Of a stretch of 64,000 nt of DNA, positions 379 through 19,114 are shown one piece after another. Position numbers and translations under genes: made by a program. Where the stretch lies: NCBI GenBank assembly GCA_031459875.1, contig JAVKHQ010000016.1:1-64000 (forward strand), given 5' to 3'. The notes below the pieces were generated by a model. The model saw nothing but the letters and a program-made list of their open reading frames with translations, made no database searches and was not told the origin of the DNA. The stretch comes from Candidatus Fervidifonticultor sextus (GTDB lineage: Bacteria > Sysuimicrobiota > Sysuimicrobiia > Sysuimicrobiales > Humicultoraceae). How positions within the stretch are numbered: the first letter of the stretch is position 1; the number at the start of each line of letters is the position of its first letter.

Positions 379-2327
379 GCGCCCAGGCTGTCCTCGAGCG
401 GGCGCTGGCGCCCCCTGGGGAGGCCGCCGCTGGACCGGACACCTTTCCCAAGCGCCTGGTCTTCAATGCCCAGCGGTTCGGCGACCGCGTGGCCTTCCGG
501 GAGAAGGAGTTCGGGATCTGGCGCGAGATCACGTGGCGCCAGTACCTGGAGCACGCGCGCGCCTGCGCGCTGGGCCTCCATGCCCTGGGGTTGCGCCGGG
601 GCGAGGTCATCATGATCATCGGGGACAACCGCCCCGAGCAGTTCTACATCGCCATGGGCGCCCAGGCCATCGGCGCCATCTCGTGCGGGATGTACCAGGA
701 CAGCCTCCCGGAGCAACTGGCCGAGCTCATCGAGTTTGCCGGAGCCCGCTTCGTCTTCTGCGAGGACCAGGAACAGACCGACAAGATCCTGGAGATGGAA
801 TCGCGGCTGCCGACCGTCGAGCGGATCATCGTCGAAGACTGGCGCGGGATGTGGCGCTACCGCCACCCCAAACTGATCTCTTACACCGATCTGGAAGCCC
901 TGGGTCGGGAGGCCGACGCGCAATCCCCGGAACGGTTCGAGGCGATGGTGGCCCAGACCCGGGCGAACGAGGTGGCCATCCTCTGCCAGACCTCAGGGAC
1001 CACCGCCCTGCCCAAGCTGGCCATGCTGACGCACCGCAACCTGCTCAGTCAGGCGGAGAACTTCCTGGCCGTCGAGCCGCACATTTCAGCCAGCGACGAG
1101 TTTGTCAGCTACCTGCCCTTCGCCTGGATCGGCGAGCAGATGTTCTCCTTCAGCCTGCACCAGGTGGTAGGCTTCACCGTGAACTTCCCGGAGGAGCCGG
1201 AGACCGCGCAGCGGGACTTCCGCGAGATCGGCCCGCACTTCACCTTCGCCCCGGCCCGGATCTACGAAGGGCTGCACACGGCGGTGACCGTGCGTATCCT
1301 TGACGCGGGCCCGATCCGGCAGTGGATCTACCACACGGCCATGCGCCACGGCATCCGGGCGGTGGAGTTGGAAGCCGAGGGACGCCCCCGGCCCTGGTGG
1401 TTGCGGCTCGCAAGGTTCTTCTGGTACTGGACCGTCTACCGCCCGATCCTGGACAAGATCGGCATGGTGCGCATGCGCGTCGCCTGGAACGGCGGGGCGT
1501 CGCTGGGCCCCGACTACCACAAGTTCTTCCGGGCCCTGGGGCTGAACCTGAAGCAGATCTACGGCCAGACGGAGATCGCCGGGATCTCCTGCGTGCACCG
1601 CGACGGGCAGGTGCGTTTCTGGACCATGGGCGCGCCGATCGCCCATACCGAGGTCCAGATCTCGCCCGACGGCGAGATCATCGAACGGAGTCCCTCGGTC
1701 TTCCTGGGATACTACCGGAATCCGGAGGCCACCGCCAGGAGCCTGCGCGATGGCTGGCTCTACAGCGGCGACTACGGCGCCCTGGACCCCAGCGGCGACG
1801 TGATCCTGTTCGACCGCATGGGCGACATGATCCAGAAGGCCGACGGGACGAAGGTCGCGCCGCGGGTCATCGAGGACATGCTGAAGTTCACGCCCTACAT
1901 CCAGGAAGCGTGCGTGATCGGCGACGGGAAGCCCTTCCTCGCCGCGATCCTGAACATCGATCTGCGCACCGTGGGTAAGTGGGCTGAGGACCGCGGCATC
2001 TCGTTCACCTCCTACACCGACCTGTCGCAACGGCCGGCGGTGCTGGACCTGTTGCGGAACCTCGTGGAGGAGACGAATGCACGCCTGAAACCCGAGTGGA
2101 AGATCCACCGGTTCGTCTCGCTTTACAAGGAGTTCCATCCCGACGATGACGAACTCACCCGGACGCGCAAGCTCCGTCGCCGACACATCAACGAACGCTA
2201 CCGCGACCTCATCGACGCCATCTACGGGGGGAGGGCGGAGTTCCAGGCCGTCGTCACCATCCGGTACGAGGACGGACGCACCGCCGAACTCCACCCGATC
2301 ATGAAGATCCTGGACGCGGGTCCGTGA
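375..2327 (+). CDS. Long-chain acyl-CoA synthetase / AMP-binding enzyme
   Basis: QTSGTTALPK P-loop, YGQTE motif, GWLYSGD, C-terminal ELTRTRKLRR; ATGA overlap with upstream gene. Confidence 0.9.
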   Translation: MSAQAVLERALAPPGEAAAGPDTFPKRLVFNAQRFGDRVAFREKEFGIWREITWRQYLEHARACALGLHALGLRRGEVIMIIGDNRPEQFYIAMGAQAIGAISCGMYQDSLPEQLAELIEFAGARFVFCEDQEQTDKILEMESRLPTVERIIVEDWRGMWRYRHPKLISYTDLEALGREADAQSPERFEAMVAQTRANEVAILCQTSGTTALPKLAMLTHRNLLSQAENFLAVEPHISASDEFVSYLPFAWIGEQMFSFSLHQVVGFTVNFPEEPETAQRDFREIGPHFTFAPARIYEGLHTAVTVRILDAGPIRQWIYHTAMRHGIRAVELEAEGRPRPWWLRLARFFWYWTVYRPILDKIGMVRMRVAWNGGASLGPDYHKFFRALGLNLKQIYGQTEIAGISCVHRDGQVRFWTMGAPIAHTEVQISPDGEIIERSPSVFLGYYRNPEATARSLRDGWLYSGDYGALDPSGDVILFDRMGDMIQKADGTKVAPRVIEDMLKFTPYIQEACVIGDGKPFLAAILNIDLRTVGKWAEDRGISFTSYTDLSQRPAVLDLLRNLVEETNARLKPEWKIHRFVSLYKEFHPDDDELTRTRKLRRRHINERYRDLIDAIYGGRAEFQAVVTIRYEDGRTAELHPIMKILDAGP

Positions 2328-14821: not shown

Positions 14822-17269
14822 CTATCGGACGACCACGTTGACCAGCCGCCCCGGGACCACGATCACGTCGGTCACGGTCTTCCCGTCCAGGTACTGGCGG
14901 ACCCTGGGGCTGGCCAGGGCCACCTCGCGCGCCTGCTGATCGCTGATGGCGGCCTCCACCTCCACGCGGTCGCGCACTCGACCGTTGACCTGCAGGACGA
15001 GCGTGATCCGCTCGGCGGCAGCCTTCTGCGGGTCGTAGGCGGGCCACGGCTGCAGATGCACGCTGTAGGGCTGCCCCAGGTGCTCGACCCACAGTTCCTC
15101 CGCGATGTGCGGGCACAACGGAGCCAGCAGCAGCACCAGCGTGCGGATCGCCTCCTCCCACAGCGGATCCTCCGCCAGCGGCGTCCCCTTGATCCGCTGC
15201 AGGGTGTTGGCAAACTCCATCAGCGCGGCGATCGCCGTGTTGAATCGGAAACCCTCGATGTCATCGGTCACACGGCGGACGGTGCGATGGATCCAGTACT
15301 CCAGGTCTCGAGGCCGCAGGTGGTCGGTGGGCTCCCGCACCGGCTTCGCAGGCTCGGTGACGAGCGCCCACACCCGAGCCAGGAAGCGCGCGATCCCTTC
15401 GATACCCCGAGGGTTCCAGGGCCCTCCCTCGTCCCATGGACCGATGAACATCAGGTAGGCCCGCAGCGTGTCGGCGCCGTACTGCTGCACGATCTCGTCG
15501 GGGTTGACCACGTTGCCGCGCGACTTGCTCATCTTGTTGCCGTCGGCGCCCAGGATGGTCCCCTGGTTGAACAGGCGGATCATCGGCTCGTCGAACTCCA
15601 CCAGCCCCAGATCCCGCATCACCTTGGTCCAGAAGCGCGTGTAGAGCAGGTGCATCACGGCGTGCTCGACCCCGCCGGTGTACTGGTCCACAGGCAGCCA
15701 GTACCTGGCCTTCTCGGGGTCGAACGGCCGCTGCTCATCGTGCGGGCTCAAATAGCGGTACTGGTACCAGGAGGAGTCGACGAACGTGTCCATGGTGTCC
15801 GTCTCGCGCCTGGCCGGGGCCCGACAGCGGGGGCAGGCGACGTTGAGGAACCCCTGGTGATACCGTAGCGGCGACTCGCCGGTTGGTCGGAACTCGGCAT
15901 CCTCGGGGAGCACCACCGGCAGGTCCTCGTAGGGCACCGGGACCGTCCCGCACTGCTGGCAGTAGATGATCGGGATGGGGGTGCCCCAGTAGCGCTGCCG
16001 ACTGATCAGCCAGTCGTGCAGGCGGTAGTTGACCTTGCGCTCACCGATGCCGCGCGCCACCATGTCGTCGGCGATGCGCTCCCAGCCCACATCGGAGGGC
16101 AGACCGTCGTAGGGTCCCGAGTTCACCATGGTGCCCGGGCCCAGATAGGCCTCCCGCAGCGGGCTGCCGTCCCATCCCGGAGGCGCGATGACCACCGGGA
16201 TGGGCAGCCCGTACTTGCGGGCGAAGTCGAAGTCGCGCGCATCGTGCGCCGGGACGCCCATGATGGCGCCGGTGCCGTACGTCAGCAGCACGTAGTCGGC
16301 GACGTAGATAGGCACCGGCGCCTGATTCATCGGGTTGATAGCGTAGGACCCGATGAACACGCCGTCCCGCTCCTTCTCGGTCGACTGCCGCTCGATGTCG
16401 GACTCGCGCGCGGCCTTGTACTGGTAGGCCTCGACCTCCCCCCGGCGGTCCGGGGTCGTCAGGACATCCACCAGGGGGTGCTCGGGCGCCAGCACGCAGA
16501 ACGTCATCCCGAAGACGGTGTCGGGCCGGGTGGTGAAGACGCGGAAGGACGCCCCGGGCCGACCCTGGACGGAGATCGCGAACTCGACCCCGCGGCTGCG
16601 GCCGATCCAGTTGGTCTGCAGCGTGCGGACCCGTTCGGGCCAGTCGATCTTGGAGAAGTCCAGCAGTTCATCGGCATACGCCGTGATCCTCAGGAACCAC
16701 TGCTCCAGGTTCTTCTTGACCACGGGTGTCCCGCACCGCTCGCAGACCCGCTCCTCCCCCACCACCTGCTCGCGGGCGAGCGTCGTGTTGTCCTTGGGGC
16801 ACCAGTCGACCGGGGCGAGGGCGCGGTAGGCCAGACCGCGTTCGTACATCTTCAGGAAGAACCACTGGTTCCACTTGTAGTAGGACGGATCGCAGGTGAC
16901 GATCTCGCGCTCCCAATCCCACATGGCCCCCATGGAACGCAGCTGGCGGCGCATCCGGTCGATGTTGTCCATGGTCCACCGGTAGGGGTGGATCCCGCGC
17001 TCGATGGCCGCGTTCTCCGCCGGCAGGCCGAACGCATCGAATCCCATGGGGAGCATGACGTTGTAGCCACGGCGGCGCTTGTAGCGGGCCACCGCATCGG
17101 AGGGCGCCATGGGGTACCAGTGGCCCACATGGAGGTCGCCGGAGGGATACGGGTACATGGTCAGCAGGTAGTACTTGGGGCGCGGATCGAAGTCCGGCGC
17201 GTGGTGCAGCCGGTCGGCTTCCCACCGGGCCTGCCACTTACGTTCAATGGCCGACGGATCGTACCGCAT
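14822..17269 (-). CDS. leuS: Leucine--tRNA ligase
   Basis: MYPYPSGDLHVGH (HIGH), DWLISRQRYWGTPIP, KMSKS, LQVNGRVR. Confidence 0.98.
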   Translation of the reverse strand: MRYDPSAIERKWQARWEADRLHHAPDFDPRPKYYLLTMYPYPSGDLHVGHWYPMAPSDAVARYKRRRGYNVMLPMGFDAFGLPAENAAIERGIHPYRWTMDNIDRMRRQLRSMGAMWDWEREIVTCDPSYYKWNQWFFLKMYERGLAYRALAPVDWCPKDNTTLAREQVVGEERVCERCGTPVVKKNLEQWFLRITAYADELLDFSKIDWPERVRTLQTNWIGRSRGVEFAISVQGRPGASFRVFTTRPDTVFGMTFCVLAPEHPLVDVLTTPDRRGEVEAYQYKAARESDIERQSTEKERDGVFIGSYAINPMNQAPVPIYVADYVLLTYGTGAIMGVPAHDARDFDFARKYGLPIPVVIAPPGWDGSPLREAYLGPGTMVNSGPYDGLPSDVGWERIADDMVARGIGERKVNYRLHDWLISRQRYWGTPIPIIYCQQCGTVPVPYEDLPVVLPEDAEFRPTGESPLRYHQGFLNVACPRCRAPARRETDTMDTFVDSSWYQYRYLSPHDEQRPFDPEKARYWLPVDQYTGGVEHAVMHLLYTRFWTKVMRDLGLVEFDEPMIRLFNQGTILGADGNKMSKSRGNVVNPDEIVQQYGADTLRAYLMFIGPWDEGGPWNPRGIEGIARFLARVWALVTEPAKPVREPTDHLRPRDLEYWIHRTVRRVTDDIEGFRFNTAIAALMEFANTLQRIKGTPLAEDPLWEEAIRTLVLLLAPLCPHIAEELWVEHLGQPYSVHLQPWPAYDPQKAAAERITLVLQVNGRVRDRVEVEAAISDQQAREVALASPRVRQYLDGKTVTDVIVVPGRLVNVVVR

Positions 17270-17295
17270 CGTCATCCCCCGCAGGACCGGATCGC

Positions 17296-18225
17296 TCACC
17301 GCGCCGGGACGGGCACCGGCGTCAGCCAGCCGTGCCGGTCGGGAAGCCGGCCTTCGGTGATGCCGAAGAACTGCTCCTGGAGCCGCACGGTGACCGGGCC
17401 CCGGCGGCCCGGTCCGATGGGCTGGCGGTCCACCGACCGGATCGGCGTGATCTCCGCCGCGGTCCCGGTGAAGAAGGCCTCGTCCGCCACGTAGAGCATC
17501 TCCCGCGGGATCGCCATCTCGCGCACCTCGATCCCGAGGTCCCGGCACAGGGTCATCACCACCCCGCGCGTGACCCCGCCCAGGATCGAGGCCGCCAGCG
17601 GCGGAGTGTAGACGATCCCGTCGCGGACCAGGAACAGGTTCTCGCCGCTGCCCTCGCTGACGTACCCCTGCACGTCCAGGGCGATCCCCTCGGTGTACCC
17701 GTTGTCGACGGCCTCCATGACCACGAAGGCCGAGTTCACGTAGTTCCCGCCGATCTTGCCCATGCCGGGCAGAGTGTCAGGCGCCACCCGACGCCACGAA
17801 CTGACCATCACGTCCACCCCCTGCTCGATGGCCTCGGGACCCAGGTAGCGCCCCCACTCGAAGGTGAGGATCGCCACGTGCAGCGGGCAGGCGCGGTGGT
17901 CGACGCTGAGCGACTCCACGCCGCGAAAGGCCACCGGGCGGATGTAGCAACTCCGGTGCCCGTTGGCGCTGACGGTGTCGAGGACGGCACGCTCGAGGTC
18001 CGCCGCCGCATAGGGCAGCGCCATCCGGAAGATGCGACAGGAATCCTGGAAGCGCCGGAGGTGCGCGCCCAGGCAGAAGACCGCCGGCCCCGTCGCGGTC
18101 TCGTAGGCCCGGATGCCCTCGAAGACGCTCGATCCGTAGTGGACCACGTGCGAGGCCACGTGAATGCGCGCGTCGTCCCACGGAATCAACGTACCGTCCA
18201 TCCAGACCCGGCTCGCTCTCTGCAC
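17296..18225 (-). CDS. ilvE: Branched-chain amino acid aminotransferase
   Basis: HYGSSVFEGIRAY, KIGGNY (PLP lysine), EGSGENLF, GTAAEITP; GGAGGT RBS before GTG 18225. Confidence 0.95.
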   Translation of the reverse strand: MQRASRVWMDGTLIPWDDARIHVASHVVHYGSSVFEGIRAYETATGPAVFCLGAHLRRFQDSCRIFRMALPYAAADLERAVLDTVSANGHRSCYIRPVAFRGVESLSVDHRACPLHVAILTFEWGRYLGPEAIEQGVDVMVSSWRRVAPDTLPGMGKIGGNYVNSAFVVMEAVDNGYTEGIALDVQGYVSEGSGENLFLVRDGIVYTPPLAASILGGVTRGVVMTLCRDLGIEVREMAIPREMLYVADEAFFTGTAAEITPIRSVDRQPIGPGRRGPVTVRLQEQFFGITEGRLPDRHGWLTPVPVPAR

Positions 18226-18252
18226 TGCCGCCACCTCCACGAAGACAATGAT

Positions 18253-18280
18253 GCCGCCTCCACCCAAGGGCGAAGGCGGC
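18253..18280 (-). terminator. T-box expression-platform hairpin (terminator or sequestrator; no clear U-tract)
   Basis: GCCGCCTTCGCCC pairs with GGGTGGAGGCGGC and overlaps the antiterminator 3' strand; followed by ATCATTGTCTT. Confidence 0.65.
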
Positions 18281-18319
18281 CTCCGCGGTACCACCCCGGT
18301 TGACAGATGCCGCAGCGGC

Positions 18320-18394
18320 TGGTGGAGCAGAGGGGAATTGAACCCCCGACCTCCCGCACGCCAAGCGGGCGCTCTCCCGCTGAGCTACTGCCCC
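18320..18394 (-). tRNA. tRNA-Ala (anticodon GGC), CCA encoded
   Basis: GGGGCAG TA GCTC AGCGGGA GAGC G CCCGC TTGGCGT GCGGG AGGTC GGGGG TTCAATT CCCCT CTGCTCC ACCA; full cloverleaf with G3.U70 Ala identity pair. Confidence 0.96.
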
Positions 18395-18598
18395 ATGGCA
18401 CCTGTCCGCTTCAGGCCCGTATCGTGGACGGACGGTGGAGGCTAGGGGACCGGACCCCGTCGTCTCCACGGCTCCCGGGCGAGTTCGGCGATCCCGCCGG
18501 TCGGTTCGCACCGTCCCCGACTCGCTCGGCGGCAGGAGGTCCGCCTACTGCTCCCGATCATCGCCATCCTGCGATGGACCGTCGGGCCCATCACCACG

Positions 18599-18626
18599 AT
18601 TATACGCGCGCCCGAGGGGGCGTCAA
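18599..18626 (-). promoter_or_regulatory. Sigma70 promoter TTGACG-N16-TATAAT driving T-box/tRNA-Ala/ilvE/leuS
   Basis: Near-consensus hexamers about 35 nt upstream of Stem I. Confidence 0.8.
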
Positions 18627-18628
18627 CC

Positions 18629-19114
18629 TCACAGCTTGTAGCCGAAGCGCCGTAGCAGGTCCTTGCGCCAGGCCACCTCGGCCTCGTCCTCGACGCCCAG
18701 CGGCACCCAGCCGTCCAGCACGCCCAGGATCCCCCGCTGGTCGGCCTCTTCGGCCACCACCACCTTCAGGGGATTGGCCGTGGCCGCGAAGATCCTGACG
18801 ACCTCCGGGCAGGCCTTCACGGCGTGGAGGACGTTGATGGGATAGAACCCTTCGCCCAGCACAATCAGGAAGCAGTGGCCGGCTCCAATCGCGAGGGCAT
18901 TCCTGACGGCCAGGTCGACCAGTGTCGCATCGGTCCCGGTCTTCCGGACAAGCCGCCTTCCGCTCGACTCGCAAAACGCCAGGCCGAACCTGATGCCGGG
19001 GACCGCGGTCACCAGGGCCTCGTGCAGGTCCTCCACCGTCTTGATGAAGTGGGACTGCCCGAGGATGATATTGAGGGCCTCAGGCTTCTCGATGGGGACG
19101 ACTGTGAGCTCCAT
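18629..19114 (-). CDS. Adenosine-specific kinase family protein (DUF355)
   Basis: NIILGQSHFIKTVEDLHEAL, FCESSG, GFYPINVL, ATANP, RGILGVLDG. Confidence 0.85.
   Translation of the reverse strand: MELTVVPIEKPEALNIILGQSHFIKTVEDLHEALVTAVPGIRFGLAFCESSGRRLVRKTGTDATLVDLAVRNALAIGAGHCFLIVLGEGFYPINVLHAVKACPEVVRIFAATANPLKVVVAEEADQRGILGVLDGWVPLGVEDEAEVAWRKDLLRRFGYKL

Follow-up and report, generated by a model that had tools for sequence, protein, structure and literature searches.

Can the leader of a riboswitch that senses transfer RNA (tRNA) carry a tRNA gene inside its own fold and still act as a riboswitch? The question is raised by a minus-strand leader in a stretch of 64,000 nucleotides (nt) of Candidatus Fervidifonticultor sextus (contig JAVKHQ010000016.1; the whole stretch analysed is called the window), where a complete tRNA-Ala(GGC) gene is enclosed by the two halves of a leucine T-box upstream of ilvE and leuS. 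T-boxes sense tRNAs and are among the best-studied riboswitches; the leaders of Bacillus subtilis tyrS, glyQS and leuS are canonical examples of the transcriptional type. The evidence set out below makes it probable that the leader is a working leucine T-box with the tRNA-Ala(GGC) gene of the genome in the loop of Stem III. From the sequence we infer that both are co-transcribed, that tRNA-processing enzymes cut the transcript, that leaders are recycled and that the leader responds to tRNA-Leu.

The Rfam T-box model RF00230 was searched against the 551 nt from 18150 to 18700. It aligned to 18570..18263 over its complete length (model positions 1-219) with 53.9 bits and an E-value of 4.9e-11, and 91 nt in the loop of Stem III were passed over as a local insertion. 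The two strands of this stem, GACAGGTGCC (18406-18397) and GGCATCTGTC (18311-18302), form 10 pairs including one G.U, and the helix was present in the minimum free energy (MFE) and centroid folds of the window leader. Between the strands lie a 2-nt spacer, the tRNA and an 8-nt trailer, in this order. The stem is framed by AAGCG and AA, which corresponds to the RRRNG-Stem III-AA motif of T-boxes as defined in the passages available from PMC7778990. Directly 3' of Stem III stands AACCGGGGTGGTACCGCG (18301-18284). Stem I showed the GA/K-turn region, an S-turn (AGUA...GAA), the AG-bulge variant AGCGAG and the distal loop GGUGCGA. The specifier CUC agrees with ilvE and leuS downstream and with tRNA-Leu(GAG), the predicted cognate ligand of the riboswitch, which is encoded on contig C66 of the genome; the A73-CCA end of this tRNA suits the bulge UGGUACC (UGGN, the N of which pairs with the discriminator base of the tRNA in T-boxes). 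We considered GCC, which directly follows CUC, as an Ala specifier for the nested tRNA and rejected it, because GCC forms the helix below the specifier loop and because this position varies among relatives (GCC, GUC, ACC, GUU).

Downstream, RNAfold predicted a 12-bp hairpin (18280-18253) that overlaps the 3' strand of the antiterminator. A Shine-Dalgarno-like GGAGG at 18237-18233 falls outside this hairpin, and from the reading frame and this motif the start of ilvE is probably a GTG at 18225. At the other end, a scan of 18100-18760 returned a single promoter-like site, with a mean of 0.1 in shuffled sequences; its -35 hexamer begins directly past the stop codon of the upstream open reading frame (ORF). 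An earlier note on this stretch, made from the letters, had already described a promoter, a Stem I with a Leu specifier that fits the downstream genes, and two 10-mers pairing as Stem III around an intact 75-nt tRNA-Ala with CCA. All of its coordinates agreed with the sequence, ARAGORN and Rfam, and NCBIfam put names to the two genes (Table 1).

Table 1. Features of the nested leader and the genes behind it (window coordinates).
Feature	Position	Strand	Basis
Promoter-like site TTGACG (18626-18621), 16-nt spacer, TATAAT (18604-18599)	18599..18626	minus	consensus match 11/12
T-box Stem I	18471..18564	minus	Rfam RF00230 alignment, model positions 7-103
Specifier codon CUC (Leu) in loop GAA-CUC-G (18486-18480), purine G at 18480	18481..18483	minus	RF00230 alignment
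Stem II (18468-18436) and Stem IIA/B hairpin (18434-18423)	18423..18468	minus	RF00230 model positions 106-150, pseudoknot putative
Purine motif AAGCG (RRRNG, 18411-18407) and Stem III 5' strand GACAGGUGCC (18406-18397)	18397..18411	minus	sequence
tRNA-Ala(GGC), 75 nt, G3:U70, A73, encoded CCA	18320..18394	minus	ARAGORN; Rfam RF00005 66.6 bits, gathering score 29
8-nt tRNA trailer (18319-18312), Stem III 3' strand GGCAUCUGUC (18311-18302), conserved AA (18301-18300)	18300..18319	minus	sequence
Antiterminator: helix A1 (GGGG), 7-nt bulge UGGUACC (18293-18287), helix A2 (GCGGA), loop, 3' strand UUCGCCCUU (18274-18266)	18266..18297	minus	RF00230 model positions 187-216
Putative competing 12-bp terminator hairpin (18280-18253) and weak U-rich tail AUCAUUGUCUUC (18252-18241)	18241..18280	minus	RNAfold of downstream segment
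ilvE, branched-chain amino acid aminotransferase	17296..18237	minus	NCBIfam NF005146 418 bits, cut-off 279
leuS, leucyl-tRNA synthetase, start approximate	14822..17290	minus	NCBIfam TIGR00396 994 bits, cut-off 548

The nested tRNA has the marks of a gene that the cell needs. It carries the G3:U70 wobble, the alanine identity element, and was the only tRNA that ARAGORN called in the 64-kb window, which is contig C8 of the source assembly (3.05 Mb, 70% G+C, 67 contigs, 96% completeness). The assembly yielded 53 ARAGORN calls. A second 'tRNA-Ala(ggc)' at C1 80779-80854 was rejected as a false call, because it is un-tRNA-like and lies within a coding sequence that reads as permease-like; this leaves the nested copy as the single credible Ala(GGC) gene of the genome, a point the earlier note had left to be checked. 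GCC makes up 48 of the 94 Ala codons of ilvE plus leuS. The nested gene was also the sole Ala(GGC) gene in four of five other genomes checked by their six best-scoring loci. As a side observation, the false call at C1 80779-80854 would distort a copy count of Ala(GGC) genes. About 730 nt downstream of it lies a separate T-box (C1:79814-80049, 41 bits), which is a different leader.

The arrangement is not confined to the window. A DNA search of 40 relatives followed by ARAGORN gave 25 loci from many genera, the window's own included (L010-L034), in which a tRNA-Ala(GGC) is followed 15-121 nt later on the same strand by GGTGGTACCRCG. We then scanned one genome per species (596 Gb) with a pattern consisting of a tRNA T-loop, a distance of 27-57 nt and the T-box core. 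The scan returned at least 120 matches. Among the matches listed, a tRNA lay over the match in 111 of 120, and each of these 111 was tRNA-Ala(GGC). Two of the nine tRNA-less matches (L060, L085) were the same element cut by a contig end; the other seven look like chance and are about as many as expected for a 21-base pattern in 596 Gb by a hand estimate.

Carriers among the matches listed belong to Chloroflexota, Bacillota and Sysuimicrobiota, the last being the phylum of the window. By the depositors' labels, 45 of 80 titled loci came from Chloroflexota (Thermomicrobiales, Ktedonobacteria, Limnocylindria, Chloroflexia, Anaerolineae, Caldilineae), 23 from Bacillota (Syntrophomonadaceae, Peptococcaceae, Thermoanaerobacteraceae and others), two from Candidatus Fervidifonticultor, which match loci of the window's own genus, and six from metagenome-assembled genomes (MAGs) with other or doubtful labels, while four had no tRNA at the match. 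The element also occurs in cultured strains, among them Thermosyntropha lipolytica DSM 11003, Desulfotruncus alcoholivorax DSM 16058, Desulfitispora alkaliphila DSM 22410 and Tengunoibacter tsumagoiensis Uno3. The first recognisable gene downstream of 131 unique loci was leuS in 79 cases and ilvE followed by leuS in 29; for the other 23, among them 17 with short flanks, no such gene was found. For 128 loci the sequence reached 220 nt or more upstream of the nested tRNA, and 120 of these showed GAACTC[AG] there. The CUC specifier fits the leuS or ilvE-leuS downstream.

Covariation was analysed with a covariance model (R1) of six Stem III pairs, the cloverleaf and the antiterminator, built from 19 seeds. 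MAFFT had been given 26 seeds; seven of them (L027, L051, L056, L075, L082, L112, L116) were misaligned in Stem III or the antiterminator and were dropped. The model later re-found and re-aligned all seven, of which all but L027 came from the pattern scan. From 106 representatives with at most 95% identity, 100 entered the analysis (left out were L151 and L155-L159), and the following values refer to these. Standard pairs filled 97.9% of the cells compared with 81.1% after shuffling, a value as high being reached in none of 500 shuffles, and with 43-54% when partners were slid. In 25 of 36 pairs both sides change. All six modelled pairs of Stem III covary, one pair of columns being AU in 48, CG in 19 and GC in 10 sequences. 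The four tRNA stems were paired to 98.8-100% with many double changes, and the antiterminator helices to 96.5-99.2%. G3:U70, A73 and the anticodon GGC were each present in 100 of 100 sequences, and the bulge UGGUACC in 97. RRRNG was found in 86, AA in 96 and both flanks in 83. An encoded CCA was present in 80 and absent in 20, i.e. the nested gene exists with and without it. Stem III covaries, the T-box core is intact, and so is the tRNA-Ala with its invariant G3:U70; taken together, this indicates that the T-box and tRNA parts are under purifying selection in one arrangement across phyla. By this comparison, the dual-purpose leader that the earlier note had proposed gains support.

On the other hand, a number of observations weigh against a working nested leader. 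The first concerns the quality of the T-box, because 53.9 bits is below the Rfam gathering score of 93. All nine T-box matches in this genome of 70% G+C, however, score below 93, while nested leaders elsewhere exceed it with the tRNA enclosed: a Thermosyntropha MAG reached 133.2, Desulfotruncus alcoholivorax DSM 16058 130.7 and Tengunoibacter tsumagoiensis 100.7 bits. Within Sysuimicrobiota, nested leaders scored 52-67 bits and un-nested orthologues 45.6-79.8 bits. Because the orthologues fall in the same range, the low score is due to the lineage and not to the insert; here the natural un-nested orthologues and the local alignment of Infernal across the insert stand in for a comparison with the insert deleted. 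The second concerns termination. A simple terminator scan called none in the window, where the hairpin has a weak U-rich tail and no canonical U-tract. Lower-G+C carriers have plain intrinsic terminators with clear U-tracts at the same place, and Sysuimicrobiota relatives have a short U-run a few bases past the hairpin. By analogy with the lower-G+C relatives, on which the case for this lineage rests, attenuation is likely in the lineage of the window too.

Further points of this kind arise from the computations themselves. The folding energy of the leader was unremarkable (z -1.75), and the MFE fold of the unmodified RNA lacked the cloverleaf; yet folding energy is not informative in RNA of 70% G+C. 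The covariation alignment was fitted to the structure of the model and is hence biased towards that structure. In a check free of alignment, the 30 nt upstream of each tRNA were paired with its own trailer and with the trailers of other loci, which gave means of -14.7 and -10.9 kcal/mol, respectively. Thus a Stem III strand pairs more stably with its own partner than with one from another locus, in agreement with the covariation result. Promoter scans are weak evidence in DNA of 70% G+C. As to copy number, Tengunoibacter tsumagoiensis (G096, 7.7 Mb) has a second Ala(GGC) gene. It lies at about 5.23 Mb of C1 in a tRNA cluster with the order Ile-Ala(UGC)-Ile-Ala(GGC)-Ile (L176/L180).

The remaining points come from the phylum Sysuimicrobiota, in which nesting is not universal. 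A model scan gave a nested-size match in 49 of 94 species genomes and six more that were ambiguous. A match was counted as nested-size from 97 bits upwards, because loci known to be nested range from 91 to 164 bits whereas matches to the tRNA alone reach about 90. By family, the nested match was found in 23 of 34 genomes of f1, 17 of 22 of f2, 0 of 23 of f4 and 7 of 12 of f5, and in the single genomes of f7 and f3. An un-nested ilvE-leuS T-box with an ordinary short Stem III occurs in the same-family genomes G007, G017, G021, G023 and G013. Each of these five (L160-L164) has a tRNA-Ala(GGC) on the same strand at a distance of 0.2-1.5 kb upstream; in the two loci read, those of G007 and G013, this tRNA stands behind a promoter-like site of its own. 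The T-box of G006 (L197) is un-nested as well, with an untyped tRNA-like match about 3.5 kb upstream. Two genomes are unpublished, G013 with one of the six un-nested loci (L162) and G022 with one of the many nested loci (L025), and no conclusion hangs on either alone.

Reduced states were found besides. G011 is without Stem I and Stem II and has no Rfam T-box match; it keeps the tRNA and the antiterminator. At this locus (L026, C76 about 1500-1720, minus strand) TTGACG-17-TATAAT stands directly before the 5' strand of Stem III, and then follow tRNA-Ala(GGC), the 3' strand, an intact bulge, a hairpin and ilvE-leuS. This may represent a riboswitch in decay or one reduced to the discriminator. 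G036 (L201, C3 4860-5160, minus strand) keeps tRNA, ilvE and leuS without a T-box, the order being promoter-like site, tRNA-Ala(GGC), UUUUU hairpin/terminator, ilvE, leuS. In family f4 no T-box motif was found within 1.5 kb of leuS, and the tRNA lay 7-11 kb upstream on the same strand in two of three genomes examined. Neither ilvE nor leuS was found next to the loci of f4 or next to two further T-box loci of the Leu type (L035, L036, L038, L165, L166). From this series it looks as if the linkage of tRNA-Ala(GGC) to leuS is ancestral and as if nesting itself can be lost. The existence of un-nested, Stem I-less and T-box-less relatives implies that any benefit of nesting is modest or depends on the lineage. 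Two side observations may be added: in G036 the tRNA held its place though the riboswitch was lost, and the un-nested relatives are natural controls in which the insert is removed.

Which other explanations could account for the locus? One would be that the tRNA is transcribed from an unrecognised promoter inside the leader and that the nesting is a genomic overlap without functional coupling. The tRNA of un-nested relatives has its own promoter-like site, that of G011 sits directly before the Stem III 5' strand, and a consensus scan is insensitive at 70% G+C. Yet no promoter-like site was seen from 18599 to the tRNA, so that the separate promoter between Stem I and the tRNA, which according to the earlier note would refute a dual-function leader, did not turn up. 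The stretch from Stem I to the tRNA is moreover filled by the conserved Stem II/IIA-B and Stem III, and a leader transcript that reaches the antiterminator must contain the tRNA anyway. We therefore consider independent transcription unlikely.

The best indirect support for a shared transcript of leader and tRNA came from Chloroflexota. In 14 of 131 loci the nested tRNA is preceded on its own strand, at a distance of 257-394 nt, by a tRNA-Ala(CGC). Ktedonobacteria (L045, L055, L064, L098, L111) have a second promoter-like sequence between tRNA-Ala(CGC) and Stem I. In a further group of at least seven loci (L077, L078, L080, L081, L095, L099, L108), which the depositors labelled mostly as Anaerolineae, Caldilineae and Thermoflexales, Stem I begins by eye roughly 10-50 nt past tRNA-Ala(CGC). 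Three loci of this group were scanned (L078, L095, L080); the sole same-strand promoter-like site (11/12) was upstream of tRNA-Ala(CGC), and a terminator-like hairpin with a U-tract followed the T-box. As far as can be read from the sequence, the riboswitch halves there amount to spacer and trailer in an operon of tRNA-Ala genes, which suggests that leader and tRNA share a transcript.

A second explanation is that the T-box is a relic. The leader would then be only a precursor of tRNA-Ala with the helix as a processing stalk, its T-box parts would have ceased to sense tRNA-Leu, and ilvE-leuS would be expressed by constitutive read-through. The score below the gathering value and the weak terminator tail fit this idea, as do the real relics in the same phylum, G011 with Stem I/II lost and G036 with the T-box lost. 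The window, however, keeps all hallmarks of a T-box, quite unlike the decay of those relics. The hallmarks are also kept across phyla at the frequencies given above for the specifier, the bulge, the flanks and the antiterminator pairing, and the scores of un-nested orthologues of the same family assign the low value to the lineage. A relic thus appears quite improbable.

According to a third explanation the tRNA-shaped insert is a structural module in cis, i.e. a scaffold, timer or decoy that is not released as a working tRNA. The single tRNA species at the site, 111 times Ala(GGC) in 111 among the matches listed, would be in line with this, and so would the A73-CCA ends shared by tRNA-Ala and tRNA-Leu, either of which could pair with the UGGU bulge. 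But the insert is the genome's sole credible Ala(GGC) gene, GCC accounts for about half of the Ala codons in ilvE and leuS, and G3:U70, the anticodon and A73 are invariant. Furthermore, the T-box of the un-nested relatives presumably works in nature without an insert, and a single origin accounts for the constant Ala(GGC) without a role in cis. We hold this explanation to be very unlikely.

Finally, an assembly artefact that joined a tRNA gene into a T-box leader is hardly conceivable in spite of the source being a MAG of 67 contigs and of public-run contigs breaking inside the conserved tRNA core, since contigs bridge both tRNA junctions without differences (X1 18277-18376 and 18365-18686; X2 18275-18376 and 18347-18686) and since over 100 independent genomes, among them cultured strains and one assembled as a single sequence of 5.3 Mb, share the arrangement. 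The four DNA runs behind the bridging contigs all belong to one study, and one run is possibly the source sample; the recurrence is the stronger of the two arguments against the misassembly that the earlier note had envisaged. Apparent contig 'joints' such as those from 18296 to 18469 and from 18303 to 18543 were discarded, because their sides have fewer than 30 letters at 90% likeness; they probably stem from T-boxes of other organisms.

How would a working T-box with an enclosed tRNA gene operate? Transcription would start from the one promoter-like site (18626-18599) and run through to ilvE and leuS, so that the transcript would contain in order Stem I with CUC, Stem II/IIA-B, the 5' strand of Stem III, the tRNA, the 3' strand, the antiterminator/terminator, ilvE and leuS. 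The 10-bp Stem III would close around the folded tRNA. We propose that Stem III is permissive at its distal end, whereby the T-box core would keep its normal geometry. Uncharged tRNA-Leu(GAG) would pair both with the CUC specifier and with UGGU in the bulge, stabilise the antiterminator and allow read-through into ilvE-leuS; without it the 12-bp hairpin would form. Because the tRNA lies upstream of this hairpin, each leader transcript, terminated or not, would be a precursor of tRNA-Ala. RNase P and 3'-end enzymes would release the tRNA and thereby sever Stem I/II from the expression platform. In read-through transcripts, excision would leave an mRNA whose 5' end lies shortly upstream of the antiterminator/terminator hairpin.

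Most of this is ordinary T-box architecture. Like canonical members of RF00230, the element has a Stem I with a specifier loop, Stem II/IIA-B, RRRNG-Stem III-AA, a 7-nt UGGN bulge, a synthetase gene under its presumed control and an antiterminator predicted to compete with a downstream hairpin. It differs in that 85-91 nt with a complete tRNA gene for another amino acid take the place of the apical loop of Stem III, in the position of ilvE between the leader and leuS in Sysuimicrobiota and in the weak U-tail of the window. The closest published cases, in the parts of the literature available to us, were hairpin insertions in staphylococcal T-boxes. There, too, a large extra fold is tolerated in the linker/discriminator region of a working T-box. 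As far as those sources go, the staphylococcal inserts are plain hairpins of one genus that encode no separate RNA product, whereas the insert here encodes a tRNA, lies within Stem III and is common to several phyla.

A parallel for the cutting may be seen in the thrS and thrZ leaders of B. subtilis, which, according to the passages available, are cleaved just upstream of the terminator, with the hairpin left as a protective 5' structure (PMC7913692, PMC3997798). The proposed excision of the tRNA would cut near the same position, directly upstream of the antiterminator/terminator. In thrS, RNase J1/Y cut an unstructured site, whereas here a tRNA fold would be processed by RNase P and 3'-end enzymes as predicted. 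By this analogy we hypothesise a thrS-like effect of the excision on the ilvE-leuS mRNA. RNase P cleavage has reportedly been seen in riboswitch leaders such as pbuE. Co-transcribed tRNA genes as such are familiar from the tRNA-Ile/Ala in the spacers of rRNA operons and from tRNA-mRNA operons such as E. coli tufB. As proposed here, an embedded tRNA is freed in such operons by RNase P and 3' processing from flanks that pair around it. In contrast to tRNA operons, where the tRNA stands between functional units, it would here be enclosed by the fold of a regulatory RNA whose own ligand is a tRNA.

A tRNA gene inside a T-box was not described in the T-box literature searched, in full text and, for PMC7778990, PMC3766115 and PMC2494555, in the passages available, supplements aside; the earlier note had known of no such architecture either. 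New here are the ilvE-leuS lineage of Sysuimicrobiota, the series of states within one phylum and the tRNA-Ala(CGC)-T-box-tRNA-Ala(GGC) operons.

If a working nested T-box is the right reading, a riboswitch leader can double as the precursor of a stable RNA, and leaders that are constantly transcribed and mostly aborted need not go to waste. Sites for RNase P and 3'-end processing would be placed just upstream of an expression platform, where they may affect the fate of the mRNA. For annotation, the insert lowers covariance-model scores, so that automatic pipelines may overlook nested leaders or report just the tRNA. The series of states in one phylum, from nested and un-nested to Stem I-less and T-box-less, provides material on what nesting contributes, and several cultured carriers make the question directly testable. 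It is possible, although we regard it as rather doubtful, that the tRNA-Ala genes and the T-box of leuS belong to a single composite transcription unit of ancient origin, whose regulation includes tRNA processing. The two riboswitch halves would then be spacer and trailer of a tRNA-Ala operon, after the pattern tRNA-Ala(CGC) - Stem I/II - tRNA-Ala(GGC) - antiterminator - leuS of the Chloroflexota. If so, cuts by RNase P and 3'-end enzymes would produce a two-piece riboswitch joined by Stem III and would set the 5' end, and hence the stability, of the ilvE-leuS mRNA. Synthetase expression would then be tied to the tRNA-processing capacity of the cell, and every aborted leader would be a useful tRNA.

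Two minor observations concern the neighbourhood of the element. The ORF upstream of the leader encodes 161 aa (18629-19114, minus strand), ends 2 nt before the -35 hexamer and had no NCBIfam match. In L051, L075, L058, L065 and similar loci (Limnocylindria and Chloroflexia by their labels) a gene of about 200 aa lies between the T-box and leuS, the start of leuS is 650-1000 nt downstream of the T-box, and the linker after Stem III is AAGCUCA or AAGUCAU, one base longer than usual.

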